Sequence record: PX880100.1
Source of the DNA: a phage
Length of the DNA: 64,000 nucleotides
Strand: one strand, 5' to 3'
Position numbers and translations under genes: made by a program. This document shows positions 1,705 through 63,886 of the stretch, one piece after another (the stretch's first letter is position 1; each line of letters opens with the position of its first letter). Under the pieces are notes generated by a model that did no database searches, was not told the DNA's origin, and saw only the letters and a list, made by a program, of their open reading frames with translations.

Positions 1705-2275
1705 AACAATACTCCTGTGTTGGAAATGAAATAAGTTTTCTTTAGGACTATTCAGAAAGAATAGAACAACTGTTACTGTCAATTTCTCAACAAATTAATT
1801 GCAAATACTGAAGTGGGGTGGCAACTTCCACTTTCACGCTACACTGCCGCTTCACTATACCGCACAAATCCTTGAGGATGGCCGCTAAGCCAGATTTGCT
1901 CACCTAATGCTTCATGTACTAGCTCATACTAGATGTAGTATACCTTACGTCATCACTTCTCAGAGTTTTTCACTCTTCCCGTCTCACTTCACAACCACCT
2001 CACACTAGGTTGCTTCGAGGCCTTACCAGGGTTCCTACGGGATGTAGATCGCTAAGTATTCTATTAATTATTTGTTTAAAAACCAACACGTAACAGTTAA
2101 AACAACCCTTAATGGGGCAGCCTAACTGTTCCGTATCGCGGATTGTAAACAAGAAAAATTAGCAAAATCAATTTTTACTAATGTCTCTCGATTCAATATA
2201 AATATTATATCAAGATTTTGGGCATCCTGCAAGTAAAATTTTCCGGATGGTGCTATCATTGGTCTTGAGTACGAG

Positions 2276-2300
2276 TAAAACCGAGCCAAAATGACTCGGT
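2276..2300 (-). terminator. Rho-independent terminator after 2309..2506 gene
   Basis: Minus-strand hairpin AACCGAG-loop-CTCGGTT followed by U-tract. Confidence 0.5.
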
Positions 2301-2308
2301 TATGTAGA

Positions 2309-2506
2309 TTAGACACTTAAAATACTTCTAATCTCTTCTATATACTTATCTACTTTTTTAGCATCTACTTTACTTAGTTTTCCTATGTCAAAATCAGGAT
2401 CAGTAAACATTCTAGCTATCTCTATCTCTAGAGACTTACTAATTTTCCCTGTAGTATTCCACTTAGAAATCTTACCTTTTATCTTCCAAAATTCCTTATT
2501 CATCAT
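2309..2506 (-). CDS. hypothetical small protein
   Basis: ORF track; ATG overlaps stop of restored upstream reading frame (coupling). Confidence 0.4.
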   Translation of the reverse strand: MMNKEFWKIKGKISKWNTTGKISKSLEIEIARMFTDPDFDIGKLSKVDAKKVDKYIEEIRSILSV

Positions 2507-2889
2507 TTAACCCCGGAACATATATCCCAACACGGTTTAATTGTTCTTTAGCTTCTTTGAGAATATCTGGAGTGTACTCCCAAATATCATCTTCCACCTG
2601 TAAAAAAATGGGGCGAACAACCATCATCCGGCACACGACATATGGCCAAACAACGTGGATGGAACAAAGAGAAATTTAGGGCAACAATTAAACCCATAGC
2701 AGACAATTCATTCCAATCCAATTCCCATTCCCCGGCGTATCCAGACAGGAAAACGCCAATGCATGGATCATCTATTTGCTGCTCAGGAAAAGTGAAAGAG
2801 ACTTGTCTTACCCCCAACCAACGTTGTAGCAGCTTCTCCGCACGTTTCACCAAACTAGGATCAATCTGACGCCAATATACTTGTTCCAT
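2496..2889 (-). pseudogene. frameshifted paralogue of 2899..3327 (intact N-terminal ORF 2587..2889; C-terminal part in +1 frame after an A7/T7 run at 2602-2608)
   Basis: N-terminal CIG and W-EL-MGL-ALN-LF motifs shared with neighbour; C-terminal W-Y-P...L-R-G...PGL block is only in the shifted frame. Confidence 0.5.
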
Positions 2890-2898
2890 TCTGCCTCC

Positions 2899-3327
2899 TT
2901 AAGCAGTTAAACCTGGGATCATATACCCGAAACGGCGAAGTTTTTGGATACCATCATTCACTTCTTCTGGTGAGTAAGACCAACCATAACGTTCATTAAC
3001 CTGAAAACCAGGAGATTCACTAGTTTTATAGTTAACAACGAGGCGATGCTTAGCAGACATAAACAGCTTATAGTTTAACGCAAAAACTAAGCCCATTTCA
3101 TCTAACTCTTTCCAGCCGACAATCTCTTCAAGGCCCTCTTCTACCTGAACAATTAAACCAATACAGGGGGCCTCATCAATATCATCTTTAAAAGCAAAGG
3201 AGATTTCGTTATTCTCACACCATATTTTCAAGGAGTTAATAGCCTCATTATACAGGCTAGCCGGGAGAGTACGCCAAAAGTTAACCAAAATTGGGTTAGC
3301 TTCTTTAGAGAAGACATTATTAAACAT
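2899..3327 (-). CDS. hypothetical protein, paralogue of 2496..2889
   Basis: ORF track; shared motifs with adjacent gene. Confidence 0.5.
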   Translation of the reverse strand: MFNNVFSKEANPILVNFWRTLPASLYNEAINSLKIWCENNEISFAFKDDIDEAPCIGLIVQVEEGLEEIVGWKELDEMGLVFALNYKLFMSAKHRLVVNYKTSESPGFQVNERYGWSYSPEEVNDGIQKLRRFGYMIPGLTA

Positions 3328-3329
3328 AT

Positions 3330-3842
3330 TTACACCTTAAATTGTTGTAGGGCTTTACACATTTCAAGATCTGGACTAAATTCTAACATATAGCTAACAG
3401 CTTTTAAATCCTGAAGATTTATCCCGGTCCTACCGTTGACTATAACCGTTGGATACTGATACATCATAGCACCCCCATCATCAAGCACACACCAATGTTT
3501 GAGCTTATGCTTTTCAACGAAGCGAAGAACAGAATTACCCCTAGATAATCCACCCCCAGTAAAATCCGTTGTACCAAGAAAACGATCGATAAGACCTAAT
3601 CCGGTCATAATCTGAACGTTCTCCATCTCATTTCTGACAGAGAACCAAGATGATACTCCAACAATCATTATCGGAGAAGGACGAATAAAGTCCTGAAAAG
3701 CCTTGAGAAGCGGTTTGAAAACCCAGTCACTTCCAAAGAAAATCTTTTCATCATCAGGTGCATGATGGTGGGAGATGCTTGAATTGAGCACCCCATCAAT
3801 GTCCAGAAAAATAATTGGAGTATTACTTATTTCCTGACACAT
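3330..3842 (-). CDS. HAD-superfamily phosphatase/hydrolase
   Basis: N-terminal FLDIDGVL (DxDG[TV]) motif I. Confidence 0.6.
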   Translation of the reverse strand: MCQEISNTPIIFLDIDGVLNSSISHHHAPDDEKIFFGSDWVFKPLLKAFQDFIRPSPIMIVGVSSWFSVRNEMENVQIMTGLGLIDRFLGTTDFTGGGLSRGNSVLRFVEKHKLKHWCVLDDGGAMMYQYPTVIVNGRTGINLQDLKAVSYMLEFSPDLEMCKALQQFKV

Positions 3843-4638
3843 GAGGTCTACCCCCTAAATGAGCTTCTACACGAGCAATAAAATCAGGATCACTGAAAGC
3901 ATCTACCGCACCTTTACTCCAGTAAGGGATACCGCGTTCTTCCAGCTGGTACATCTCACTACGAGTCATACCTTGATAGCCAGGTTCCGCCGCTAGGGCA
4001 CTATCATAGTAGTTAACAACCATTAGCTTGGCAGCAGTCAAATTAAGAACAGGAAATAGTTCCCAGTAGAAGTTAATTACTTGGTTAGAGCAACCAACCA
4101 CAATGATCATATCTTGACTGGTAATACCATCAAAAACATTGTACATTTCCGCATATGCTGGAGCATGCTCTCCAAAGAAGATTACATTAGGTTTAACCCA
4201 TTTATAATCATCTGGATCAATAGAATTGTATCCTACATCAATAATCCGTTTATTGCTACTATTGTAGCTATCAGCTACAACAACCTCTTTTAAATATCCG
4301 TGAATGTGCAGAATGTCACTATGTGGAACGCCAGCACGCTCAATAAGGTCATCAACGTTGGTAGTCAAGTTTACTACTTGACCTGGATATTGTTTATACC
4401 ATTCACCAATACGCAAATGCGCAAGATTGGGTTCAACAGTTTTTAGCTCTTCACGACGCCTGTTGTAAAACATATGGGTTTTATGATAAAAATTACCACG
4501 AAAGGCATGAATATTGCATACCTCTTCTAAGTCATAATCATCCCACAATGCTTTACCACTAGCAGTATCAGTACGGAAGGCTCGTACACCGCTTTCAACA
4601 CTCAAACCTGCACCGCTAATAACAATTAATCTACGCAT
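3823..4638 (-). CDS. Sir2-family (sirtuin-like) NAD-dependent deacylase/ADP-ribosyltransferase, apparently zinc-less
   Basis: GAGLSVESGVRAFR Rossmann motif, NVDDL, HIHG catalytic His; no CxxC zinc pairs. Confidence 0.7.
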   Translation of the reverse strand: MRRLIVISGAGLSVESGVRAFRTDTASGKALWDDYDLEEVCNIHAFRGNFYHKTHMFYNRRREELKTVEPNLAHLRIGEWYKQYPGQVVNLTTNVDDLIERAGVPHSDILHIHGYLKEVVVADSYNSSNKRIIDVGYNSIDPDDYKWVKPNVIFFGEHAPAYAEMYNVFDGITSQDMIIVVGCSNQVINFYWELFPVLNLTAAKLMVVNYYDSALAAEPGYQGMTRSEMYQLEERGIPYWSKGAVDAFSDPDFIARVEAHLGGRPHVSGNK

Positions 4639-48659: not shown

Positions 48660-49398
48660 CTGTCGTATTTGCACATATTATAGGGCAGTTTCTCTCCTGC
48701 TATAAATATCCTAGGCCGGTTTTCCTACACAGGGCGGTTATTGGGAGGGCGGTTATTTCTAGAAGACATTTTTCCAAAACACATTTCCAGAATTCATTGT
48801 CGGATTCGCACATTGTGTTTCTAGAAATTTATGGTCGGATTTGCACAATCGCCTAAGTTTTTAGGAACATATAATCTCCTGAAAATGGCAGCATTATTTC
48901 GGGCCGAAGGCCCATGATTGCCTGAGTTTTTAGAGCCACAAGAATTTTCGCTTGTCAAGCTATTTTGCCCCATTTAGCTAATAAAATTTTACCTTTTCTG
49001 CACTTATCTCAAATTAACCCAAATCTTCTCAACTCTTCCCCAAAATCCCCGCAAATCAGGTGCTCCGCACCAAACATGCACCTCTCTCACAGTTCTCTCA
49101 AATTTTTCTCGCTCTCTCAACTTCTCCCCGAACTCATACAATCACACACCCTCTAATCGAAGTCACAAAAATCTTGTCGGATTCGCACAAATAAACCCAT
49201 GTCGGATCTGCACATACTCTAGCTAATTCCACAGGATTGATGCGCAGCATCGGATTGCTGGAGTTTTTGGGAAAATTCATTGTCGGATTTGCACACTATA
49301 AAAATTTTTCGGGTCGGATTTGCACACTACCAAAAATTGTCGGATTTGCACATACACGCCCACGCGTAATCCATGGGGGCAAATGTCGGATTTGCACA
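48660..49398 (+). repeat. nine direct copies of the 15-bp motif TGTCGGATTTGCACA at irregular spacing (injection-stop-like region)
   Basis: Copies near 48660, 48798, 48834, 49175, 49199, 49280, 49312, 49338, 49384, all same orientation. Confidence 0.85.
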
Positions 49399-49441
49399 AA
49401 AGCGCAGGGCAATTGCCCTGCTCGCCTGAATGCGAATAAAA

Positions 49442-49612
49442 ATGAGAATGATTCTCATTTAAAAAGCGGAATGCGAATGATAATGATTCGTATTTAAGAA
49501 TGGAAATGAGAATTATTCAGGAAGTGAAACGATTCTCATTTAAAAAGTGGAATGATTATTAGTTACATAGTAAAACGCGAATGATAATGATTCGTATTTA
49601 AGAATGGAAGAG
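49442..49612. repeat. tandem repeats with embedded palindromes (AATGAGAATGATTCTCATT; CGAATGATAATGATTCG...)
   Basis: Two copies of each ~40-bp unit; related palindrome at 49939-49957; 18-bp palindrome GCAGGGCAATTGCCCTGC at 49404-49421. Confidence 0.8.
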
Positions 49613-49620
49613 AGAAACAC

Positions 49621-49810
49621 TATTATTTAAGTTATCCACAGACTTATTAACAGCACGATTTGACTTGACAGAATCCTAGCCATTTTGAGGCGTTATTAAC
49701 AGACTTATCCACAGCTTATCCTACTGTATAAATATACAGTATTCCTACGCAGTGAATAATTCTAATATAGCGTTAAAACGTCCTAGATCGCATTCTAACG
49801 CGTTTAATTT
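49621..49810. repeat. left ~180-bp inverted repeat with two consensus DnaA boxes (49632-49640, 49705-49713)
   Basis: TTATCCACA x2; imperfect reverse-complement match to 53280-53460. Confidence 0.75.
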
Positions 49811-50107
49811 TGTTGGGGATACTAAAACAAGGGCAAAATTGGAGGAGGCTTAGAAATTAGTTAGCTCGCTAACGATCACACAAGGCGACACGTAACACCC
49901 TAACCATTAGCAGGCTAACCATCGCGGGCGCGGTCAAATGAGAATCATTCTCATTTGAGAATTGGGGGCACTTCCCGATAGTTGCGCCCCGTGATTATTA
50001 CAGTAGTGGGCAACCGTTACGTTTTGCCCACTCCCGCCACTCATCTTGATACCTAGACTTGCGACGGCGTACTAAAAACCGTTTATACCAGTGATTAAAC
50101 CATTGTT

Positions 50108-50341
50108 TCATAAATCCTCCTCCGGTAGTCGATGCGTGATTTTTTCCTCCTCCCCGTAGGAATCCGCCAAATGCTGATAATAACCATCGTGATCATAAAT
50201 CACTTTATCATACTCGCCACGCTCGACCGCTTGCCGATTCTCCGGCGTATCGGGCACATAAAAAACATCAACCATTGTACTAGTTTTGGTCACAATAATT
50301 TTATTGCTCATAATAACTCCTAGTAAATATATTTTTGCCAA
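50108..50341 (-). CDS. hypothetical protein
   Basis: ORF track; GC-richer module. Confidence 0.4.
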   Translation of the reverse strand: MAKIYLLGVIMSNKIIVTKTSTMVDVFYVPDTPENRQAVERGEYDKVIYDHDGYYQHLADSYGEEEKITHRLPEEDL

Positions 50342-50411
50342 TAGTGGCGAACGTTATCGCCACCAGCGGAATCATTAGCTGCCTCAACATTACCAACGAA
50401 AATATATAATT

Positions 50412-50795
50412 TCATTGCGCCACCTTTCGAAACGCTGTTTCAATACTATCAGCGGTGGATTGAATATACGCGCCTTTCATTATCAGGCGCTCGGTGCACA
50501 CCTTGCGGAAAATATTAATAAAATCATCTTCATTTTCTGCAATTAACGCTTCACCCATAACCTGAACATCACAAGATGCAAAGGTCAAAAATTGAAACGC
50601 TAGTTCACGGGCAACGACCGCATTGATTTTATAATGCGCCTTGCCCTCATAAATATTAATAACGCCCTTATAAGCGGGTGAAAGCTGATTCAAATAGTTT
50701 GCTAGTAATGCCGGACGGCAATTAGCAACAAAACGATTGCCTTCATAAATAACCATTTTATAACACCCCACGAAACGCAGCGTAAAAGGTGGCAA
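50412..50795 (-). CDS. hypothetical protein
   Basis: ORF track; start uncertain. Confidence 0.4.
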   Translation of the reverse strand: MPPFTLRFVGCYKMVIYEGNRFVANCRPALLANYLNQLSPAYKGVINIYEGKAHYKINAVVARELAFQFLTFASCDVQVMGEALIAENEDDFINIFRKVCTERLIMKGAYIQSTADSIETAFRKVAQ

Positions 50796-50970
50796 AGTGT
50801 TTAACCGTTTCAGCGATCACGTTGCCGCGCTTGTCGAATTTTTTCTCAGTAACACGAAAGGCATTTTTATTACGTGCTACATATTCGATTTTACAGTCTT
50901 CACGCTCGAACGTGTTAACGTCCACCAGCTTAAAGCCTTTCGAACGTGCAAGGGAAACGTTACGAATCAT
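50758..50970 (-). CDS. hypothetical protein
   Basis: ORF track. Confidence 0.35.
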   Translation of the reverse strand: MIRNVSLARSKGFKLVDVNTFEREDCKIEYVARNKNAFRVTEKKFDKRGNVIAETVKHFATFYAAFRGVL

Positions 50971-51168
50971 TTTTATTCTCCTTTACCAGTCATGCAGCCC
51001 AGCAGATAAGAAAACGCAGCAATTACCGCGCCAATAATAACGGCGTGAACACCGAAAGCTATTGCAAACAACGATAAAATAGCGCCCAAGATACCCGCCA
51101 GAATAGCTCGAAAAATAATCATTTTTATTCTCCTAGTCAGTGGGGGATATAATATCCCCCGTTACTAA

Positions 51169-51399
51169 TTACATTAAAACAATTTTTGCAGCTTGTTTTT
51201 TAGTACAGTGTTCCGCTTTCAGCGTGTCCAGCAAAAAGCCCGCCGTTTGCTGATCGATTTTATCGGCGTTGTATAGTTCTTGGATGGTGTTATAAGTTTT
51301 AGCAATGCCGAACTCCTGCACCATTTCATGAATGATTACGCGATTAGACACCCAACCTTGAGCGGTGAACAGATGACTAGCAGAAGAGTATGCAACCAT
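51169..51399 (-). CDS. hypothetical protein
   Basis: ORF track. Confidence 0.4.
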   Translation of the reverse strand: MVAYSSASHLFTAQGWVSNRVIIHEMVQEFGIAKTYNTIQELYNADKIDQQTAGFLLDTLKAEHCTKKQAAKIVLM

Positions 51400-51503
51400 T
51401 TTAAGCCTCCAAATTTTTGGGAAATTTTCAATCCACCGTTTTGGTGTAAAGGCATTATAACAAAAAAGGCCACCATAAAAGGCGACCTTTACAAAACTTT
51501 ACA

Positions 51504-51998
51504 TTAGACTACCTGCAAGGATTCAATATTGAAACATCGTTTCAATTCGTCATGCAAGACAGCATATTCCTCCCATCGGGTACTATCAGGAATATAAACA
51601 AGCTGTTTTAGTCGATTTGCGTATATTACCGCTTTGTTACCAACTATCTCGACGCCACCATATTTAATAATTAATTTCATGACGGAATTAATAGGATCGC
51701 CGCCGTTTACATATGTGCCGGATTTACTTAACTGATAATGATAAAGACTTGCGTATACGTTTTCATTCTCATACCATTCGCCCGTTTCCTCATCCTCATA
51801 TCCATCGCTACCAAAACGAGAAGCATTATCAATAGCCATTTCGTGAGCTAAAGCGTCCAGATCCGTACCAGCAGGAACAAAATATTCCTCGGTATTCCCT
51901 TCCCCGCAATAGCCAGTATGACAATCGACTAAAATGATCATATCATGTTTAGCCGTGCTCACTTCTCCTAGCGAGAAGCCGTATTTTTCCTCAGCCAT
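51504..51998 (-). CDS. hypothetical protein
   Basis: ORF track; SD-like sequence upstream. Confidence 0.5.
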   Translation of the reverse strand: MAEEKYGFSLGEVSTAKHDMIILVDCHTGYCGEGNTEEYFVPAGTDLDALAHEMAIDNASRFGSDGYEDEETGEWYENENVYASLYHYQLSKSGTYVNGGDPINSVMKLIIKYGGVEIVGNKAVIYANRLKQLVYIPDSTRWEEYAVLHDELKRCFNIESLQVV

Positions 51999-52063
51999 TT
52001 ATTAGTCTCCTATTAGTTAACAAGGGAATAGTAAAGCGGGGAAATAATCCCCACTAGATATTA

Positions 52064-53074
52064 TTACTCGCTTTCGGTGTTAGTGGTAAAAGTAGAAATA
52101 TCGATACCTTTTACCATTTCATCAATCATTTCAGCGATGTTAAAACTTTGCACCATTTCCAGCATTGCCGCTTCCATAGCTGCGCCTGCTACCGCTTTCG
52201 CCTTTTGGTTACTCGGTGCGTACTGGTCAACCGCTACACTCAGCAGGTTGGCAATCACTACTCGACCAATAGGCGTATCGATATAACCTTTGATCATGAA
52301 CGGTGCTTTTTTAGCCGCTACTTTCGTAATTTGAGTCAGTGCAATTTTACCCGCTTCCAGTTTTGCAGCATTTACAACAGCGGATTTATTAGCGGCAACG
52401 ATGTTAGCAATCTTGGTCATGGTATTTTTTCCTTTGTTTTCAGTAGTTTGAGTATTAACATTTTGAGTGTTAGAATTTACAGCATGGTTTTCTACGCTGT
52501 CAATAATCTGATCTTCATCTTTCCAGAAAGAAAAACCAGCGCTTTCTATATCCCCATCATAAATATACGGGTATAACTCCCGTGGTAACAAAAAATTACC
52601 ATCGCCATCAAAAGCCATTATACCAGTATATTGAGATCCGTCGTTATCCGGCTTATGCCATCCAGCGGGTAAATACTTCCAGATAACATCTAAAAATCCC
52701 TCAATGCTAGAAAGTCCATTTATCAGATCAAGCCCAATAAGCTCGAAACCATTTATATTAAATGATTGACGGCCTGAATTGCTATGATACGCAACAATAT
52801 TATTACCCTGCGCAATAATAAAATCGGCATCCGGCCCCGCTCCCCTGCCTGTAAAGATATGGCAATCCCGATTATATAAAACTAGCGTTGCCCCTTGTTT
52901 ATATAACGGCAAAAAACCATCCATATCATAAGCGTCATAATCATCAAAAAAGTTTTGATGAATAGTCTCAATCTTGTTAATAAAATGTTTAATGCTGGTT
53001 GACTTGCTACCGTCCAGCAGGTTGCGCAGCGCCCCCTTTAATACGGTAGCATTATCAGGTTGATACAGCCTCAT
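52064..53074 (-). CDS. hypothetical protein (about 336 aa)
   Basis: Track ORF 52064..53242 trimmed to ATG 9 nt after GAGGGAGG. Confidence 0.5.
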   Translation of the reverse strand: MRLYQPDNATVLKGALRNLLDGSKSTSIKHFINKIETIHQNFFDDYDAYDMDGFLPLYKQGATLVLYNRDCHIFTGRGAGPDADFIIAQGNNIVAYHSNSGRQSFNINGFELIGLDLINGLSSIEGFLDVIWKYLPAGWHKPDNDGSQYTGIMAFDGDGNFLLPRELYPYIYDGDIESAGFSFWKDEDQIIDSVENHAVNSNTQNVNTQTTENKGKNTMTKIANIVAANKSAVVNAAKLEAGKIALTQITKVAAKKAPFMIKGYIDTPIGRVVIANLLSVAVDQYAPSNQKAKAVAGAAMEAAMLEMVQSFNIAEMIDEMVKGIDISTFTTNTESE

Positions 53075-53279
53075 TTGTTCGGCCTCCCTCGTTAATCGGT
53101 GAGTGAATGATATAGATATTTGTCCACTAGGGGCAAGAAAAAAGAAAATGTTTTTTATTCCTTGCCTAGCGCCTATTTTTATGCTAACCGCGCAGCGGTG
53201 CAATAAAGAGCAAACCACGGCGAAGCCACCAGGGCGACGCATTAAGGCTTTACTTTAATATTACCCCGCAGCGTTTAGC

Positions 53280-53460
53280 TCGTTAGAATGCGTTTTAAGC
53301 CGCTTAAAATTGATTGCAGTTGTTAACACTACCTTTTTACCCTGTATATTTATACAGTAGAATAACCTGTGGATAAGTCTGTGCAAAAGTCCTTATATCG
53401 CCGCCTATCGTGTCAAATTATTTTGTGCTGTGGATAACGTTGTGGATAACTTAAATGATA
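53280..53460. repeat. right ~180-bp inverted repeat with three consensus DnaA boxes on minus strand
   Basis: TGTGGATAA at 53368, 53429, 53441; reverse-complement partner of 49621-49810. Confidence 0.75.
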
Positions 53461-54180
53461 GTGGTTCTCACTTAGCTAGATGATTTCTTATAGTTATTAT
53501 TTCTCATTAATTTATATGTATATTATATATCATGAAATAATTAGTTAGCTAATGAGATTTTCCGTGATTAATAGTCAGCTAATAGTTTAGGCTGTTACAA
53601 TCCACCAGCATGATTATCATCCTAGCAATTATTAGCCTGCTATCTTTCTGATGCATACTAACAAATAAAAGTCAATTAATTTATTTCATAAAATAAGTAG
53701 TTATCCACTGGAAAATAAAAGTCAAGTGGATAACTAGGAAAATTTCATTTTTGCTTTTGGGGATAAGTTATCAACAGGGCTAGAATGCGCCTAAAACGCC
53801 CTAGAACGTGATGAAGTTTTTAGCCATCCCATCATAAGGGGATAAGCCGTTTATCGCTGCCACGAGCTTTTTAGATTTTGTCAAGTAGGGGAAAGCAAAT
53901 ATAAATGAAAAAATTACTTGCCTATTTGCTTTATTTTGTGGTATTCACGCGCCCGTTTCTTTTAATTTTAGGCCATCGCCGCACGGTGTCCGGTGAGTTT
54001 TGTCTTTACGTTTCTTTACAAAAATAAGGTTGCGCCATTTTTGGGAATCCCCTATTATTTATCACGTAGGGCGGCAATGACGAACTACACGGCGGGAAGT
54101 TTACCGCCACGCTCTTTAAAAATTGGGTACATCTTAAAGCCTATCGGCGGTAAACTTATTCATTATAAGGAATCGACGAT

Positions 54181-54384
54181 ATGAAACAAACTCTTTTGAT
54201 CACTGGTAAGCCTATTAAGGCACTAGATAGCAAAACAAAAAATTTGTTGACAGTAGCGCAAAGATCGGTAAAATATCGATTTAAGCAGTACAAGAAAGGT
54301 CGCCAGCAAGGTCTGGAAATGATCTGGCGAAATATTATGATTGACCTGAAAGAAAATCATAAAAAACTGCAAAAAATTGTTTGA
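54181..54384 (+). CDS. hypothetical basic protein (pre-early block)
   Basis: ORF track; AAGGAAT upstream. Confidence 0.4.
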   Translation: MKQTLLITGKPIKALDSKTKNLLTVAQRSVKYRFKQYKKGRQQGLEMIWRNIMIDLKENHKKLQKIV

Positions 54385-54610
54385 CAACCTAGCCGATAGG
54401 TTTTAAGATGTACCCAGTTCGATAAGAGCGATAACTTGATAAAATTTGACGGTCGGTGCTTACCATAATGCACCCCGCCCCCTAACGGGATATAGCGGCC
54501 TACGTGGAGTTCTTTAAATTGATTATAGCGGCGGGAGGATTGTTACTTATTACCTGCTACCTTCTAGCAGGTAATGCGGAACAATCCATCAAATAACTGG
54601 AGTTTATACT

Positions 54611-54862
54611 ATGCAAAACGTTATTACCGCGCCAAAAATTGGTCAATCCGTCTTTATTCCTTTCGTTACTAAAACGGATGAATTAACCGGAAAAGCCGAA
54701 CGCATTAAAGGTGCGGCGCTTATGCCGTTCGATACAATCGACGCGGTATACGCTGAAAATGAACGCAGTAACAACGGCAAGCCCGTTTTTAGCGTTCGCG
54801 TTAAATCCGGCGATGTTGTAAAGGTTGTTCAACGCAACGAAAAATGGGAAGCTGTTTTGTAA
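54611..54862 (+). CDS. hypothetical protein (pre-early block)
   Basis: ORF track; GGAG upstream; terminator hairpin downstream. Confidence 0.45.
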   Translation: MQNVITAPKIGQSVFIPFVTKTDELTGKAERIKGAALMPFDTIDAVYAENERSNNGKPVFSVRVKSGDVVKVVQRNEKWEAVL

Positions 54863-54963
54863 TTTAGTGTTAACTTTATATTCCCCTGAAATATGGGGAA
54901 TATAACGATTAACATTAAGTTAATCATTAAATCCCTTAAATTAAACTAATAGGAGTTTTTACC

Positions 54964-55371
54964 ATGACTAACGCAAAAACCGCAAAATTCGCATGGAATG
55001 AAGAAAACACTCAGAAAGCTGTTACCATGTACCAGCAGTTAATCAACGAAAACGGTTTAGATTTTGCAAATAGCGACGGCCTGAAAGAGATTGCAAAAGC
55101 AGTAGGCGCGGCCTCCCCCGTATCCGTTCGGTCAAAATTGACCAGTGCAAAAGCCTATCAAAAAAGCGATAAGCCGCGTAAAGTTGGCGGCGGTAGCTCT
55201 GTGCGTAAAGCTCACTATGTGCGAGTAATTGCAAAACACGCTATCGATTCCGGTATTATCAAAGACGCCGATGATCTGGCAAGCCTTGAAAGTGCTAAAC
55301 TGGAAACGCTGGACGCGGTGGCGCAACTGTTAGGCGTTGCCGATGAAGTAAAACAAGCCGCAGGCGAATAA
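54964..55371 (+). CDS. A2: A2-like pre-early protein
   Basis: 135 aa, upstream of A1-like gene, matching T5 pre-early layout; identity from size and context only. Confidence 0.5.
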   Translation: MTNAKTAKFAWNEENTQKAVTMYQQLINENGLDFANSDGLKEIAKAVGAASPVSVRSKLTSAKAYQKSDKPRKVGGGSSVRKAHYVRVIAKHAIDSGIIKDADDLASLESAKLETLDAVAQLLGVADEVKQAAGE

Positions 55372-55461
55372 TAGTTATACCTTGCCCCCTTCTAGTAAGG
55401 GGGCAATAATATAACTGTTTAGCGATAGTTATTTTCTTCCCTTAAATCAGGAGTTTTAAAA

Positions 55462-55659
55462 ATGGTTTTCTTTCCTACTGAATCTTTAATTCTAGGCTTA
55501 TTTATTATGGCGGCCTCGTTATTGTTCGCTTATTTTCAAAATGATTTAGATTCATATTATTTTAAGCGTAAGTCTAAATTGGCAAAGCGTTTAGGTCTGA
55601 TTTGTTTTATTGCCGCCGTTGCTTGTGGTGTTAGTTCTAGCCTTATGCCTTTAAATTAA
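55462..55659 (+). CDS. hypothetical small membrane protein
   Basis: Two hydrophobic helices. Confidence 0.4.
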   Translation: MVFFPTESLILGLFIMAASLLFAYFQNDLDSYYFKRKSKLAKRLGLICFIAAVACGVSSSLMPLN

Positions 55660-55749
55660 TGTTGCAAATTATAACGCCTATTGTTCGAGGCGTTATATTT
55701 GGCAATATTGCCATTATTAATCTAATCCCTTTAATGGAGTTTTATTACT

Positions 55750-57414
55750 ATGATTATTTCCGCAGAAAAACAAACCGTTATCCTGAAAATGGCCGCTGAC
55801 TTTAATTTCTATGGTAAACGTCTGCGCGCTACTAAACTGGAAGTCTGCGACGATATTTCGAAAGCGGTATACGATACTACTAAACACTCCACCGCCATTT
55901 GTGATTGGTTGGAAGCAAATAAGCCAGCGAAACCAAAAGCGGCAAAAGTAGCAAAAGCCATTAAAAACGATGAGCGCCCAGAAGCGGCTGGGATTGTTTC
56001 TAGCACGGTTGAGCAATGGGAAGTAAAACAAGGTAAACGCTTTATTATTACGTCGATTCAGAATAATACTTTCCCGCATAAAAACTTTTTAGCCTCACTG
56101 GAGCAATTTGCTAAATATATCGGTGCTGATTTGCTTGTTTCTAAGTATATTTATAATAAAAACGGCTTCCAGAATGGAGAAGGTGCGGATGGAATCAAAT
56201 ATGATTCCGCTTTTGATAAATATATTTGCAGCAAAAACGTGTTTTTAAATAACCGCCGTTTCGCTTTCATGGCTGAAATTAATGTTTTGCCAACCGCAGA
56301 TTATCCGCTTTCTGGATTCGCAGAAACTGCAACGGCTTTAAATATTGAAGGTCTGGCAATTGGTCACGCTAAAATTACCGCTGAAAGTGTGCCAGCTTTG
56401 AAAGGTGAAGTAGTGCGCCGCATGTATTCAACCGGAACGGCAACGCTCAAAAACTACATTCAGCAGAAAGCAGGACAGAAAGCGGAAGCACTTCATAACT
56501 TCGGTGCGCTGATTGTTGAGTTCGACGACGACGGGGAATTTTTTGTTCGCCAGCTTGAAACAATGGACGAAAGCGGGGTGTTTTATGATCTGAATGTTTG
56601 CGCTACTCCTGCCGGATGCTATGAAACATCGGGGCATGTTTTAGGCTTGCAATACGGCGATATTCACGCCGAAAAATTAGATGACGATTGCGCCGCTGCG
56701 TCATGGGCTGGCGAAAATAGCTTGCTTGATATTCTTAAACCAAAATATCAGTTTGTGCACGACGTTCACGATTTTACATCGCGCAATCATCATAACCGCG
56801 CGTCGGGTGTATTCCTAGCAAAACAGTACGCCGCCGGACGTGATAAAGTTCTGGATGATCTTATCGATACCGGTCGCGTGCTGGAGTCGATGGAACGTGA
56901 TTTTAGTCAAACGATCATCGTAGAATCTAATCACGATTTGGCGCTATCCCGTTGGCTTGATGATCGTAATGCTAACATCAAAGACGATCCCGCGAACGCG
57001 GAACTGTATCACCGCCTGAATGCTGCAATCTATGCGGCAATCGGTGAACACGACGAAACGTTTAACGTGCTAGATTATGCGTTGCGCAAGGTTGCAGGTT
57101 GCGAGTTTAACGCCATTTTTCTGACCACTGACCAATCTTTCAAGATTGCAGGCATTGAATGCGGCGTACACGGTCACAACGGCATTAACGGCAGCCGTGG
57201 CAATCCTAAGCAGTTTAAGAAATTGGGCAAGTTAAACACCGGACACACTCACACTGCCAGCATTTACGGCGGCGTATATACCGCTGGCGTTGCTGGTAGT
57301 CTGGATATGGGTTACAACGTGGGCGCGTCAAGCTGGACGCAAACGCATTTAATTACCTATGCAAACGGTCAGCGCACTTTGATTGACTTTAAGAATGGTA
57401 AATTCTTTGCGTAA
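55750..57414 (+). CDS. A1: A1-like pre-early protein (metallophosphatase-like)
   Basis: 554 aa; GDIH and ESNHD metallophosphatase-like motifs; context with A2 and dmp. Confidence 0.6.
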   Translation: MIISAEKQTVILKMAADFNFYGKRLRATKLEVCDDISKAVYDTTKHSTAICDWLEANKPAKPKAAKVAKAIKNDERPEAAGIVSSTVEQWEVKQGKRFIITSIQNNTFPHKNFLASLEQFAKYIGADLLVSKYIYNKNGFQNGEGADGIKYDSAFDKYICSKNVFLNNRRFAFMAEINVLPTADYPLSGFAETATALNIEGLAIGHAKITAESVPALKGEVVRRMYSTGTATLKNYIQQKAGQKAEALHNFGALIVEFDDDGEFFVRQLETMDESGVFYDLNVCATPAGCYETSGHVLGLQYGDIHAEKLDDDCAAASWAGENSLLDILKPKYQFVHDVHDFTSRNHHNRASGVFLAKQYAAGRDKVLDDLIDTGRVLESMERDFSQTIIVESNHDLALSRWLDDRNANIKDDPANAELYHRLNAAIYAAIGEHDETFNVLDYALRKVAGCEFNAIFLTTDQSFKIAGIECGVHGHNGINGSRGNPKQFKKLGKLNTGHTHTASIYGGVYTAGVAGSLDMGYNVGASSWTQTHLITYANGQRTLIDFKNGKFFA

Positions 57415-57470
57415 TTAAATTATTTCCCTAGCGGCTTGAAATAAAGCCGCTATTATAGGAGTCACAAAAA

Positions 57471-57728
57471 ATGAAAGTTACATTACCCAAAACATTGGAC
57501 GAAAAAGTATTCATTTCACCGGATGAAATGGAATCCGATAAAGTTTACAGCTTCGGGCCTATCCTAGCCTCCAAAACTGATACTGATGGTATTATTTCCG
57601 TCGATTCCCGTGATAATGATATTGTTCCTTTTGATGACGATGGCGCTTTTTATGAGTGGTTAAGCGATAATAATTTACCCGTAAACGGTGAATTAACGCC
57701 GTACCAGATGCAGATTATTATCAAATAA
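57471..57728 (+). CDS. hypothetical acidic protein
   Basis: ORF track; GGAG upstream. Confidence 0.4.
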   Translation: MKVTLPKTLDEKVFISPDEMESDKVYSFGPILASKTDTDGIISVDSRDNDIVPFDDDGAFYEWLSDNNLPVNGELTPYQMQIIIK

Positions 57729-57766
57729 ATTAAATCCATTATTAAACTAATTGGGGTTTTATAAAT

Positions 57767-58159
57767 ATGAAAAAGCAAAATATTCCATTCGATCGCGCTC
57801 AATCTTCCATTGTTCTGGTTTATTCTAATGGTGAACGTTACCACGTCGAGGCGGGGCACGTTATTGATGATCTGTTAGATTTCAATGACGCTTTGCAGGT
57901 TACTACGTTTGCCTATACGCAGGGCAAACTAACCAGCCATATTAAAGCAAAAGGTGTTTATGTTGACACGGTGAAACAAGAAACGATTATCATCGACGCC
58001 GTAAAATCCGGTCTAGCCTTTGCAGTTGTCGCGCCTTGCCTCGCTTGCCTCGATGATCAATTGATCAGCGCAAAAGTATATACTTGTGCGGGGATTCGTT
58101 CCAGCGTATCCGGTGAAGATGTTAGTTTTATTGCCGATGCGTTGGCTTATGGTCTTTAA
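57767..58159 (+). CDS. hypothetical protein
   Basis: ORF track. Confidence 0.4.
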   Translation: MKKQNIPFDRAQSSIVLVYSNGERYHVEAGHVIDDLLDFNDALQVTTFAYTQGKLTSHIKAKGVYVDTVKQETIIIDAVKSGLAFAVVAPCLACLDDQLISAKVYTCAGIRSSVSGEDVSFIADALAYGL

Positions 58160-58239
58160 TAGTTAATTTATTATTACCCGCTATCTACAAGCGGGTAATG
58201 CTGAATTAATCTAATCCCTTAAATGGAGAACGTAACAAA

Positions 58240-58974
58240 ATGAATAAAGCTATTATGAATATTTCCCGCAGCTTCCCGCATATTTCCCGCGTTATGATTT
58301 GGGATTTAGACGGCACTATCGTTAATTCTTTCCATCGTGTAGCGCCTTGCTTTGATAGTGAGGGCAATTTAGATTTAAATAAGTATAAAAATGAAGCGTG
58401 TAAACATCATTTAATAATGCAGGATTCTTTATTGCCATTGGTTGAATACATGCGCCAATGTATGAATGACGCAAATACTTTAAACATTATTTGTACCGCT
58501 CGACTAATGAGCAAATCAGATTATTACTTCCTGCGTAAACAAGGTCTGCGCGGTCGTGGTAATAGTAATATCCGCGTGTTTTCCCGTGATACACTACACA
58601 AATATTTTGAAGCTGATAAAGTTAGCGAGATATACCACAGTAAGGACGCAGTTTATAAATCTTATTATTTTGAATTATTTAAACAGTTATATCCGAACGC
58701 TGATTTTACAATGATTGATGATCATAAAGGTGTATTATCAGCGGCGGCATCATACGGATTTAAAACGCTGGACGCACAAGCCGTTAATGATATTCTATCA
58801 ATCGGCGTGGCATTGATAGGTGAAACCTTTATTGATGAATCTCTCGACGATGATAATGATTATCAGTTCCTAGCTGATCGTTTGAAATTATGCTGGGAAG
58901 GTATGACCGAGGAAGAACGCGCAGAATATAGTTGCAGCCCGCAACAATATATTGAGAAATTAAAAGTTGCGTAA
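58240..58974 (+). CDS. dmp: 5'-deoxyribonucleotidase (HAD-like)
   Basis: 244 aa; N-terminal MIWDLDGTIVNSF (DxDGT); pre-early context. Confidence 0.65.
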   Translation: MNKAIMNISRSFPHISRVMIWDLDGTIVNSFHRVAPCFDSEGNLDLNKYKNEACKHHLIMQDSLLPLVEYMRQCMNDANTLNIICTARLMSKSDYYFLRKQGLRGRGNSNIRVFSRDTLHKYFEADKVSEIYHSKDAVYKSYYFELFKQLYPNADFTMIDDHKGVLSAAASYGFKTLDAQAVNDILSIGVALIGETFIDESLDDDNDYQFLADRLKLCWEGMTEEERAEYSCSPQQYIEKLKVA

Positions 58975-59125
58975 TAATTAAAGTTGAAATAGTCACGGTG
59001 TGTAATGATAACATGCCGTGACTATTAGCTTGCTAAGTACCGGGCGGTAATGAGACTCATTCTCATCTGGGAGGCCACTGGACACACCTCCATGTGTAAT
59101 CTTATGAAATTTGGCAAAAGTCAAA

Positions 59126-59371
59126 TTAGCGCATAGAAGGGTCATCAAACCTGTGTTCTGGTCTGAACTCACGGAATCTCTTCCGCGACGCCCGAGATCC
59201 ATCTGACCACTCCCGCTCAAACTCCGCACGTTTCTCGTCAAACTTCCGCTCCCTTTCCGCAATCTCCCGAGACACTCCCGCAATATATTTACGATGCTTG
59301 TTAATTGCCGCAGTTGTCCCGAAAACTCCCGCGAGTATCCCGATAATAAAAGCAATTACAATACTAAACAT
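59126..59371 (-). CDS. hypothetical membrane-anchored protein
   Basis: N-terminal TM helix then charged tail. Confidence 0.4.
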   Translation of the reverse strand: MFSIVIAFIIGILAGVFGTTAAINKHRKYIAGVSREIAERERKFDEKRAEFEREWSDGSRASRKRFREFRPEHRFDDPSMR

Positions 59372-59558
59372 CTAATTCCCTCTCAATTTGCAGAATACGG
59401 GTGCTATCACAACGTTGGAGTAATACTAGCTTTTCTAGAGCAACTTGTTGTTGTTTTACCTGAGCTTCTAGAGTTTTTAGGCGAATGTACACAATACGAG
59501 AGGCAATAAAGATTATCCAGACTAATATTACCATTAGTGTAATTGCTACTTCCATCAT
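59364..59558 (-). CDS. hypothetical membrane-anchored coiled-coil protein
   Basis: N-terminal TM helix. Confidence 0.4.
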   Translation of the reverse strand: MMEVAITLMVILVWIIFIASRIVYIRLKTLEAQVKQQQVALEKLVLLQRCDSTRILQIERELDV

Positions 59559-59967
59559 TTACGTTTCCCCGATAGTAAGGTTTCGATTCTAGCTAAATGA
59601 TTATCTAAAATACACTGCCCAATAATCACAATCCCTAGTAGTGCAATAATTACCCATTCCATTAGATCCACCCCGCCATAGCTGCTAACCAAAAACCTAT
59701 GAAGATTAGGAATAATACAAAACCAAATCCGTAAATATTAACCCACGCTTCGTATACTTCTCCGCGTCTGTTCTTTCTTTTATTTGACATATCTTTCGTA
59801 CTCCCGTAAATGTGGTATTTTAAATTATTTTATAATTTGTGCATAACCAACCATGCTTGTGACTTCCTAGAAGGACTTCTACTTTTCTTACATAGTGGTT
59901 TCTGCCAATACACCATCCAAAAAATAAAAAATTTAGTTTACTTGGATGTCTTTTTGCTTTATACTAA

Positions 59968-60234
59968 TTACAGGTAGTTAGATTGCTCTAGTTTAAATTT
60001 ACAATCCCCGTATTTAAGATCAAACTGACTGAGATCCCACCACCCAAATTTAGTACGGAGTTGTACTACTGGAAAGCGATCTCCCTTAATACGAACTTTT
60101 TGAACCTTGAGGCCATAATGTTCTTCTCCCGCACCACCAAAAGATTTTACAAATCCAGTACAAAATGGTTTGGGAGCAGGTGCACAACCAGATAACATAA
60201 CTGCGGCAACTAGTGCAATCACAAACTTTTTCAT
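59968..60234 (-). CDS. llp: Llp-like lipoprotein (receptor-blocking, superinfection exclusion)
   Basis: Signal peptide with lipobox LSGC; divergent from adjacent RBP gene as in T5 llp/oad. Confidence 0.65.
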   Translation of the reverse strand: MKKFVIALVAAVMLSGCAPAPKPFCTGFVKSFGGAGEEHYGLKVQKVRIKGDRFPVVQLRTKFGWWDLSQFDLKYGDCKFKLEQSNYL

Positions 60235-60265
60235 ATTTATCTCTCCATTTCTAATTTATGAGTAT

Positions 60266-60294
60266 ATTATAGCAAAATAGAGAGATAAAAGCAA
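60266..60294 (-). promoter_or_regulatory. early-type promoter for llp
   Basis: Minus strand TTGCTT-17 bp-TATAAT then CATAAATTAG. Confidence 0.55.
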
Positions 60295-60319
60295 ATACAT
60301 TTTTATAATAGGAGATTAT

Positions 60320-62077
60320 ATGGGTTTTTTCGCTGGTAAATATAGCGATGGTAAGACCGTACTATCTTTAAATACTGAATCTGGTGGTGACATTAATCGT
60401 CACTATAGTCCAAATGCCAATAGTATTTTTCATAGTGATATGCCATTTGTCCTAGTTGATGGTACTTATGAGTCTGGGTTAGGTGATGCCGGTAATGGGT
60501 TTTTTGTATGTCAAATGCCCGCTGACATAATAAATATTAAATCTAACGATCCTGGTAGAGTTATACTAACTGCTATTGAGATAAATGGTACTCACAGAGC
60601 CTTTCTTAATGGTACTCAGAGTAAGGTAGGTCAAACTATAGTTGCTACTCAGGCAGATCCTTTTAGATCTTTTGCTAGCGTTTCCCAGACTAGTGGGTTC
60701 GCTTTTGGTAATAGCCTGGCATCTGGCACATATAACTATAATCCATCTATAGGGCATGAAGAATCTATCTCTAGAAATGGTACTGGTGGAACCACCCTAC
60801 ATAGTACGTACCATGGTATAGTTAGGCCAGGTGCAGGGGCTCCAGTAGGGGTTACTGTTGCAGAAGCTTTTGCACAGTTGGGTTTTCCTACTAATAGTAG
60901 TACAGTACCTATAGATGGGAATAACCAAAATTACTGGGATCCAGGATGGATGTCTCCTTTAGGATCAGCACACAGAGGGCACGATTGGTTCTATGTTTGT
61001 AACTCTAACATACGGGGGTATGGTGGGGTAAGACAAGGTCTTCCTGGTAGTGTAAATACTATGTATCATGATGGGGGTAATAGATTTGTTTGTAGGGGTT
61101 CTACAACTAATTTAGCTAATCAATCTGGTGATTCTACAATACTACAAGATTGGTATAACATAACTCCTACTAAGGTTATTTGGTACGTTTTGAATTTAAG
61201 ATACTCAAATGGTGGTATGAGTATCTCTGGTAATCCTTTTACTGGTTCAGATATTCTTATATCTCCTTCTAATTTCATAATTAAAGGGGTTAGTCTTCCC
61301 AATACTGGATACAAGTTTATTAACCAGAACGCTTTCGGTAACTTAGGTTATAGACCAGATATGGAATATATTGGAAATAATGCAGCGTACACTGGGGCCT
61401 TTGGGGATACCACCGCAAGGTGTGAACTTGTAGGTTCTAGTAACGGGAGTTTATGGTCTCCTGTGGACTATGGGGGGGCTAAGTCTCAAATTAGTATTTA
61501 CAAATTCGGAGCTGGTAAGCAATGGTATGTAAACTCCAATGATAATACTATCGGTAATGAACACGGGGTTGTTTGGGGACCATCAGCAGTTCCATTACGA
61601 CTTTTTGGTGGAAATGTAGGTAGTTCTTATATGGGAGATGATATTACTCCCAGCTACCCGGGAACAGGAGATAGATACGTTGGTTTATCAACTATTGGGC
61701 TAGGTATACCGGGTGGCAATGCTACAGTAATTCTTACCACTGAAGTTATATCAGGTAATCTTAACTGTGCAGGTGTTCCTGCTAATACATGGAATAACGG
61801 TGTGTTTCAAGTGCAGGGAAGAAGAGCATATAGTTATAGTAATGGAGACGCGATATTCCACCAGATTTTAACACTACCAGTAGGGTATTTAGTACCTTTT
61901 CATACTACATCTGCTTTTAGATACACACCTAACAATGCCCTAAGTAGAAATAGTTTTATATACACTGCTAAAAATCTGGGGAACGGAAATGTAGAGTTAG
62001 GGGTAGTTATGCACGTAAGTTTAGGTAGTGCAGTTTTTCTACCTAGATTAAGAGTAACAGTTCAACGCCTTACCTAA
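60320..62077 (+). CDS. receptor-binding tail protein (pb5/Oad-like)
   Basis: 585 aa, Gly/Asn/Ser/Thr-rich; MGFFAGK start and QRLT end recalled as pb5-like; adjacent llp. Confidence 0.7.
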
Positions 62078-62087
62078 AGGAGGAAAT

Positions 62088-62570
62088 ATGGCAAATGATG
62101 TATTAGTACCAGATCTTATGTCCCCTGAAGGGATGGATGTGATTGAAGCTTATTTACAGTGCGGAAGTGATGTGCCTTCTGCCGCACGTAGTCTTGGAAT
62201 GTCCGAAATTGCTTTCCGAGATATTATGAATCGTAGCGAAGTTAAGAACTACTTAAACGATATTTTTATGGAAAGTGGATTCCGTAACAGAGATCGTTTG
62301 TTCGGTGTTCTAGATGAAGTTATTAAACGTAAGCTAGAGGAACTAGAAGAAACTGGCATGGGTTCTGACCAGGATATTATGGATATTCTCTGGAAGGCAC
62401 ATAAAATGAAGATGGAAGAGATGAAAATGATGGTGGAACTAGAAAAAGCTAAAGCTGCCGTACGAGCTCCAGCTAACCAGACCAATATCCAGAATAACAT
62501 TATTGCTGGAGCTGGGGATCAAAACTACATGGACTTAATTACTTCCCTAGCTACTGGAGGTAAGAAGTAA
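62088..62570 (+). CDS. putative terminase small subunit (HTH)
   Basis: HTH-like [17 protein letters not shown]; immediately upstream of terminase large subunit. Confidence 0.45.
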
Positions 62571-63886
62571 TGGAAGTATCAAGACCCTACGTTAACACAG
62601 TAGATGTTATTGATTTCGGAATAGATAAACGTTTCTTTCGTCTACCTGTTTCGGGAATACTAGCACAAGAAGGTATTACACCTAATGGTCCTCAAATAGC
62701 AATCATCAATGCTTTAGAAGATCCTAGACATCGTTTTGTAACGGCGTGTGTGTCACGCCGTGTAGGCAAATCCTTTATAGCATATACACTTGGGTTCCTA
62801 AAATTGTTGGAACCTAATGTGAAAGTGTTAGTAGTTGCTCCCAACTACTCACTGGCCAACATCGGATGGTCTCAGATTCGTGGTCTTATTAAGAAGTATG
62901 GCCTACAAACCGAACGTGAAAACGCTAAAGATAAAGAAATAGAGTTGGCTAATGGTTCTTTGTTTAAACTAGCTTCTGCGGCGCAGGCTGACTCCGCAGT
63001 TGGACGTTCATATGACTTTATCATCTTTGATGAGGCGGCAATTTCCGATGTAGGTGGTGATGCCTTTAGAGTTCAGTTGCGTCCTACCCTAGATAAACCA
63101 AACTCTAAGGCTCTATTTATCTCTACTCCTCGCGGTGGTAACTGGTTTAAAGAGTTTTATGCCTATGGATTTGATGATACATTGCCTAACTGGGTATCTA
63201 TTCATGGTACATATCGTGATAACCCACGTGCTGACCTGAATGACATCGAAGAAGCACGTCGCACAGTTAGTAAAAACTACTTCCGCCAAGAATACGAGGC
63301 TGACTTCTCTGTATTCGAAGGTCAGATCTTTGATACCTTTAATGCTATCGATCATGTTAAAGATCTCAAAGGTATGCGTCACTTCTTTAAAGATGATGAA
63401 GCATTCGAAACGTTGCTTGGTATTGACGTTGGCTATCGTGATCCTACAGCAGTTCTTACTATTAAGTACCACTATGATACAGATACCTACTATGTATTAG
63501 AAGAGTACCAGCAGGCGGAGAAAACCACAGCTCAGCATGCTGCGTATATTCAGCACTGTATAGATCGTTATAAAGTTGATCGTGTTTTTGTTGACTCTGC
63601 AGCAGCTCAGTTCCGCCAGGACTTAGCTTATGAACATGAAATTGCATCAGCTCCAGCTAAAAAATCTGTCCTAGATGGTCTAGCGTGTTTGCAAGCATTA
63701 TTCCAACAGGGTAAAATTATTGTAGATGCCTCATGTTCCTCATTAATTCATGCATTGCAGAACTATAAGTGGGACTTCCAAGAAGGTGAAGAGAAATTAT
63801 CACGTGAAAAACCACGTCATGATGCTAACTCTCACCTTTGTGATGCGCTCCGCTATGGAATTTACTCTATTTCCCGTGGTAAATAA
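62570..63886 (+). CDS. terL: terminase large subunit
   Basis: 438 aa; Walker A-like RRVGKS, Walker B IIFDEAA, C-terminal nuclease-like acidic residues. Confidence 0.8.
   Translation: MEVSRPYVNTVDVIDFGIDKRFFRLPVSGILAQEGITPNGPQIAIINALEDPRHRFVTACVSRRVGKSFIAYTLGFLKLLEPNVKVLVVAPNYSLANIGWSQIRGLIKKYGLQTERENAKDKEIELANGSLFKLASAAQADSAVGRSYDFIIFDEAAISDVGGDAFRVQLRPTLDKPNSKALFISTPRGGNWFKEFYAYGFDDTLPNWVSIHGTYRDNPRADLNDIEEARRTVSKNYFRQEYEADFSVFEGQIFDTFNAIDHVKDLKGMRHFFKDDEAFETLLGIDVGYRDPTAVLTIKYHYDTDTYYVLEEYQQAEKTTAQHAAYIQHCIDRYKVDRVFVDSAAAQFRQDLAYEHEIASAPAKKSVLDGLACLQALFQQGKIIVDASCSSLIHALQNYKWDFQEGEEKLSREKPRHDANSHLCDALRYGIYSISRGK

Follow-up and report, generated by a model that had tools for sequence, protein, structure and literature searches.

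A 64,000-nucleotide (nt) stretch of phage record PX880100.1 (the window, to whose positions all coordinates refer) poses a question of gene order: late genes, among them llp and the terminase genes, run directly into the pre-early genes that T5-type phages carry in a long terminal repeat. The initial annotation, made from the letters of the sequence, took the roughly 1 kb between dmp and llp as a sign that the repeat had been collapsed to a single copy or that a concatemer junction had been recorded, and it placed the repeat boundary somewhere inside 59000–59950, next to four short open reading frames (ORFs) for membrane peptides. All of the features that it had placed at this late/pre-early junction (dmp, the four minus-strand ORFs and llp) are present, as judged from the ORF list and the sequence. 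Our analysis indicates that the interval is very probably the native junction at which the unique DNA, at its right end, meets the long direct terminal repeat of a T5-like phage (Tequintavirus), recorded in reverse T5 orientation and with the repeat shown once.

Right end of the unique DNA and repeat boundaries

A megablast search with 58000–61000 matched 451 phage records, every one of them T5-like; 146 of these span at least 80% of the interval in one piece, the best being Salmonella phage TUMS_E3 (98.9%). Read from right to left, the window holds terL, terS, the gene for the receptor-binding protein (RBP), llp, four ORFs each with a single predicted transmembrane (TM) helix, a 41-bp flank and then the repeat, which starts at 59084. 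In T5 (AY543070), T5.155 (terL), T5.156, T5.157 (oad/pb5) and T5.158 (llp) are followed by T5.159–T5.162 and then by the right repeat, an order and orientation equal to those of the window. The same order is found in a second T5 record (AY692264, T5p153–T5p159), and the gene order at the junction is also that of BF23, MM-1 and chee24. The T5 right repeat begins at 111532, 41 nt past T5.162, with dmp as its first gene 123 nt inside (repeat positions 124–858); the flank in the window also measures 41 nt, and 110 nt separate the dmp stop codon from the repeat boundary. Counted from the left genome end, the pre-early genes inside the repeat follow in the order dmp, A1, A2 (names from the annotation of relatives), with 58974→54964 colinear with T5 124–4134. 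Nucleotide homology continues across the boundary, as 57722–59825 aligns unbroken to T5 112908–110791 at ~87% identity.

The adjacency of dmp and llp, from which collapse had been argued, is the normal right-end state of every T5 virion molecule and no anomaly: the second copy of dmp in the T5 right repeat lies 992 nt from llp (between gene ends), and the corresponding distance in the window is 993 nt. This right-end architecture is ordinary and has already been described for T5-like phages. A chimeric misassembly joining unrelated parts of a genome, or two phages, within 59000–59950 might be suspected from the repeat-caused assembly errors that Davison notes in GenBank T5-like records (bioRxiv 10.1101/866236), but the unbroken alignment to T5 across the boundary and the 146 records that cover the region in one piece leave this explanation scarcely credible.

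The junction of repeat and unique DNA falls, as the initial annotation had proposed, inside 59000–59950. The equivalent of the T5 left end is 59084|59085, to within 1 nt, and reads ...CACATGGAGGTG|TGTCCAGTGG in T5 orientation; the three T5 records all open with an identical TGTCCACTGCC... The boundaries of BF23 and MM-1 lie within 1 nt of the T5 column in an alignment that included both the T5 left end and the T5 right-repeat junction, and PhageTerm was used to define the repeats in BF23 (PMC10644984). A related IMG/VR contig (L009) stops 3 nt from the boundary. At the other end, the low-coordinate boundary 48933|48932 corresponds to the repeat ends in the T5 records AY543070 (10219) and AY587007 (10139), in BF23 (9743) and in MM-1 (10407), and the repeat ends of T5, BF23 and MM-1 all read ...TTGTGGCTC|TAAAAACTCAGG. 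By homology, the mature molecule of this phage would start at 59084 and run to lower coordinates. BF23 (OR083247) resembles the window in both of these boundaries, in its four ORFs (BF23_00172–175), the repeat starting 41–42 nt past the 81-amino-acid (aa) ORF, and in an identical Llp; it differs in its RBP, in the length of its repeat (9,743 bp versus 10,152 bp) and in a repeat start of the T5 sequence type. Some single-repeat records (L009, L014 and L015) also end at or near the equivalent of 59083–59085. The 80-bp conflict in published T5 repeat lengths (10,139 versus 10,219) was considered as a terminal difference and rejected, as the difference is internal and both ends are identical. No cleavage motif shared by the two repeat boundaries was seen by eye, and no statistical motif search was made.

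These comparisons also bear on the proposal that the genome has a truly different structure, with no long terminal repeat, with ends elsewhere or with headful circular permutation, in which case the adjacency of dmp and llp would be a one-off rearrangement. Nothing specific speaks in favor of such a structure, and the order, spacing and sequence flanking both boundaries are of the T5, BF23 and MM-1 type, and the terminase genes share 92.5% nucleotide identity with their T5 counterparts (T5 107000–108443); we regard it as most improbable.

Several points weigh against reading the interval as the native junction with these boundaries. The boundary positions in this phage derive solely from homology, and two relatives are annotated with boundaries further inside the repeat, Kenya-K37 by 16 nt (equivalent to 59068) and chee24 by 94 nt (equivalent to 58990); we have treated both offsets as differences of annotation. 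A scan of 58800–60400 for consensus promoters and terminators returned five promoter-like and one terminator-like sequence, no more than in shuffled sequences and none usefully placed. Finally, the four peptides encoded between llp and the repeat gave only sub-threshold Pfam matches (LapA_dom, 20.5 bits against a cutoff of 28; FtsL, 13.9 against 50), which assigned no function, and scans of the peptides with NCBIfam and PADLOC returned nothing.

A repeat represented once

In a mature T5-type molecule the early genes adjoin the left repeat and the late genes adjoin the right repeat. BLAST comparison shows that the window is colinear with T5 60000→1, that is, with the reversed early region and left repeat, and then passes straight into T5 111531→107000 (T5.162 to terL), so that early unique DNA, one copy of the repeat (48933–59084) and late unique DNA are contiguous. 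Because this run from early genes through the repeat to late genes is unbroken, which is impossible in a mature virion molecule, the repeat is represented once; the T5 records show both of its copies. An early–repeat–late stretch exists only in a one-repeat circle or concatemer, or in an assembly that has merged both copies. The initial annotation had therefore drawn the right conclusion about collapse for the wrong reason, since the evidence is the continuity at both boundaries, notably on the 48933 side. It had further listed long reads of packaged DNA spanning the junction, together with uniform coverage and termini elsewhere, as grounds for refutation; such spanning reads are expected in any case, 59084|59085 being the native junction of unique DNA with the right repeat.

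At least 52 phage records of ~103–113 kb hold the equivalent 20-kb early–repeat–late stretch in one piece. Single-repeat GenBank records such as phB7, ECOP18, BUCT632 and mar004NP2 have the same contiguous layout, with no difference in kind; the window is identical to none of the single-repeat records (best ~93% over 20 kb; 98.9% to TUMS_E3 over 3 kb). In the Kenya phage study, a region of more than twofold coverage was traced to the two repeats overlapping in the assembly, which yielded a circular contig (PMC10783031), and Davison has noted that some GenBank entries for T5-like phages place dmp, A1 and A2 "in the late region", which he attributes to assembly of the repeat (bioRxiv 10.1101/866236). 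The layout of the window would follow if the 10,152-bp repeat sits at both ends of the virion DNA, and an assembler merged its two copies into a circle, which it then opened at an arbitrary position.

A replicative circle or concatemer that had lost one repeat would have the identical structure. Indeed, electron microscopy of T5 DNA has shown circles shorter than the genome by one repeat, and these are thought to be precursors for rolling-circle replication (bioRxiv 10.1101/866236), and the sequence expected of such a circle or concatemer is identical to the window. The window might then be a faithful read-out of intracellular replicative DNA (a recombination circle or a concatemer) with no collapse during assembly. 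The two origins give indistinguishable sequence, but phage genomes are usually sequenced from virions, the single-repeat layout is shared by the 52 or more records of isolated phages, and the Kenya study ties it directly to the assembly of repeats with doubled coverage (PMC10783031), so that we consider an intracellular origin improbable and prefer an assembly in which the two repeats were merged. The main value of this result is one of annotation hygiene: the record should be re-oriented so that it begins at 59084 (reverse strand), with the 10,152-bp repeat written out at each end, and pre-early genes lying next to late ones should not be taken for a rearrangement.

Besides A2, A1, dmp and other pre-early genes, the repeat contains an iss-type non-coding region at its low-coordinate end, where 48663–49833 aligns at ~90% to T5 10489–9316 and covers the annotated iss. 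Here the repeat's inner end and the unique DNA beside it (48783–49833) are non-coding and ~87–92% identical to the T5 iss region, and a weak internal match at 49273–49326 suggests that repeated elements lie near the inner repeat end. Homology to the T5 repeat is missing at 51507–52060 and 53472–53788, in the region that holds variable ORFs and an HNH endonuclease (T5.010) in T5; at these two places the repeat differs in content from that of T5. The features of the region are collected in Table 1.

Table 1. Features at and around the junction of unique DNA and terminal repeat (window positions)
Feature	Coordinates	Strand or orientation	Basis and remarks
Long terminal repeat, single copy, 10,152 bp	48933–59084	Reverse T5 orientation	BLAST colinearity with T5 left repeat 10219→1
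A1	55750–57414	+	ORF list; two small ORFs (+) between A1 and dmp
dmp (5'-deoxynucleotidase), outermost gene of the repeat	58240–58974	+	Annotation at the matching position in TUMS_E3 (98.9% identical)
Strong hairpin inside the repeat, between dmp stop and genome end	58981–59031	Both	RNA fold
Repeat/unique boundary, equivalent to T5 base 1 (physical left end) and right-repeat start	59083–59085		Homology to T5, BF23 and MM-1
Non-coding flank on the unique side, 41 bp (CACCTCCATGTGTAATCTTATGAAATTTGG...)	59085–59125		Candidate cis element for end formation
ORF A, 81 aa, homologue of T5.162/T5p158	59126–59371	−	phrog_6447 "membrane protein", E=1.2e-47, profile 1–81 of 81
ORF B, 64 aa, homologue of T5.161/T5p157	59364–59558	−	phrog_5851, E=4.3e-31
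ORF C, 35 aa, homologue of T5.160/T5p156	59555–59662	−	phrog_6369, E=6e-26
ORF D, 42 aa, homologue of T5.159/T5p155	59662–59790	−	phrog_8596, E=4.2e-30
AT-rich spacer between llp and ORF D, 177 bp	59791–59967		
llp, receptor-blocking lipoprotein (lytic conversion/superinfection exclusion), BF23 type	59968–60234	−	Family matches
RBP (receptor-binding tail protein, pb5/Hrs type), 585 aa, divergent from llp	60320–62077	+	RBP annotation in TUMS_E3, MM-1 and chee24
terS	62088–62570	+	ORF list, annotation of relatives
terL	62570–63886	+	ORF list, annotation of relatives

Four small ORFs between llp and the repeat

The four ORFs lie between llp and the repeat, on the llp strand. Since the boundary at 59084|59085 is to the left of all four, they belong, together with llp, to the unique single-copy DNA outside the repeat and hence are not pre-early genes; annotation should place them there and not in the first-step-transfer repeat. 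The initial annotation had treated them as a cluster at the boundary; far from being uncharted, they are already annotated in T5 as T5.159–162 (T5p155–158), wholly outside the repeat and present once per genome. The coordinates first given for ORFs A and B were exact, while those of ORF C (~59560–59667) and ORF D (~59670–59795) had to be replaced by the ones in Table 1. ORF A was found by tblastn in 444 phage records, at a single place in each, including records that carry both repeats.

All four ORFs are genes under purifying selection and not chance ORFs. Their PHROG matches cover the whole profile in each case (E values 6e-26 to 1.2e-47), and the reading frames are almost always intact across 12–18 distinct related sequences, ORF C being intact in 19 of 19 full-length aligned copies. 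Substitutions at codon positions 1/2/3 number 55/36/163 in ORF A, 140/111/192 in ORF B, 43/23/74 in ORF C and 51/31/99 in ORF D. The ORFs overlap by 8 nt (A/B), 4 nt (B/C) and 1 nt (C/D), and the start/stop overlaps of T5.159–T5.162, each of which is annotated as "contains single transmembrane domain", are similar; this arrangement suggests translational coupling. Each peptide contains one strongly hydrophobic segment of 17 residues, with maximum Kyte–Doolittle means of 2.49–2.86, which is predicted to form a TM helix. In ORF A this helix is N-terminal and followed by a highly charged tail, and in ORF B it is N-terminal and followed by a conserved, coiled-coil-like tail. ORF C has a single TM helix. 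In ORF D, which has GGGAG 10 nt upstream of its ATG, the N-terminus is basic and the TM helix is C-terminal.

The peptides are most likely small inner-membrane proteins, probably accessory envelope or host-takeover factors acting beside Llp. Assignment of ORF A as a LapA-domain protein (PF06305) was rejected, as its sub-threshold Pfam match covers only the TM helix and a basic stretch. A full-text search found no paper naming the locus tags T5.159–162, T5p155 or T5p158; hundreds of T5-like phages keep the four peptides, whose role is a small but real gap in T5 biology. In five relatives (L008, L009, L010, L020 and L021) ~210 bp equivalent to 59372–59581 are missing, so that ORF B is almost entirely lost and ORF C lacks its 3' end; ORF B is therefore dispensable in some lineages. 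In L018, ORF B contains an in-frame stop codon.

Transcription, the 41-bp flank and the llp–RBP cassette

The hairpin between the dmp stop codon and the genome end has a computed folding energy of −28.6 kcal/mol for the plus strand (z=−5.1) and of −20.5 kcal/mol for the minus strand (z=−4.95). At the equivalent place T5 carries a hairpin whose sequence is different (z=−5.3 and z=−7.8) and which is annotated in AY587007 (69–105) as a putative rho-independent terminator. The hairpin in the window is probably a terminator for the convergent transcripts of dmp and the llp operon. The first ~100 nt of the repeat, hairpin included, differ in sequence between T5 and the window. Two unrelated sequence versions thus occupy one position, one in the window, chee24 and TUMS_E3 and the other in T5, BF23 and MM-1; the structure is kept and the sequence is not. 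Because no promoter or terminator call exceeded the shuffled expectation, the operon structure is inferred: llp and ORFs D to A are co-directional, and an early, llp-type transcription unit would run through ORFs D to A and end at the convergent terminator shared with dmp. The BF23 record has a predicted promoter in the spacer that separates llp from ORF D, with the remark "absent in T5 phage". A plus-strand ORF at 59810–59977, which is a coding sequence in MM-1, was rejected as a gene, being gapped or broken in nearly all relatives and showing no codon-position bias.

All relatives retain the 41-bp flank that adjoins the boundary on its unique side, even where an insertion lies just upstream; in L017, L020–L023, L025 and L030 homology returns at ~59132 after such insertions. 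Two possibilities can be put forward together, tentatively and with more doubt than conviction. The flank and the first ~12 nt of the repeat might together be the signal in cis where the left genome end is made by the T5-type packaging machinery, and the four llp-linked peptides might constitute a conserved set of accessory factors that act with Llp in remodelling the envelope or in superinfection exclusion. Several relatives have an HNH homing-endonuclease gene just outside the boundary, at the equivalent of ~59086–59170 (L017 3162–3716, also in L021, L023 and L025; L019 3289–3828). The L017 ORF matches Pfam HNH_3 (E=3e-9), with an AP2 domain below the cutoff (28.2 versus 33.3 bits, E=2e-6), and in this relative the insertion stands in place of the final 14 codons of ORF A. 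The L019 ORF was recognized as HNH-like by eye only, and its homology break lies at most 2 nt from the T5-type genome end.

Llp has a lipobox (LSGC, residues 14–17) and matches phrog_1119, "Cor superinfection exclusion protein", over its full length (E=1.8e-26). It scores above the cutoff of the Pfam model LPAM_1 (23.9 bits against 20) and below that of the NCBIfam Cor model (15.8 bits against 31). Its amino-acid sequence is identical to that of BF23_00171, the "receptor blocking protein", and substitutions among related llp sequences at codon positions 1/2/3 number 13/1/201. The divergently encoded RBP is 67% identical to that of BF23 (585 versus 595 aa). T5 nucleotide homology ends at 59825 and returns at ~62040–62061, depending on the BLAST run, with flanks ~87–92% identical. 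Because this homology is absent over 59826–62039, the llp–RBP cassette is, on nucleotide comparison, of a different type from that of T5, whose FhuA-type llp and oad have no nucleotide similarity to the module in the window. An Llp identical to that of BF23 together with an RBP at 67% identity points to a module of the BtuB type whose receptor-binding protein has diverged; modular exchange of llp and RBP is documented among T5-like phages (PMC10644984).

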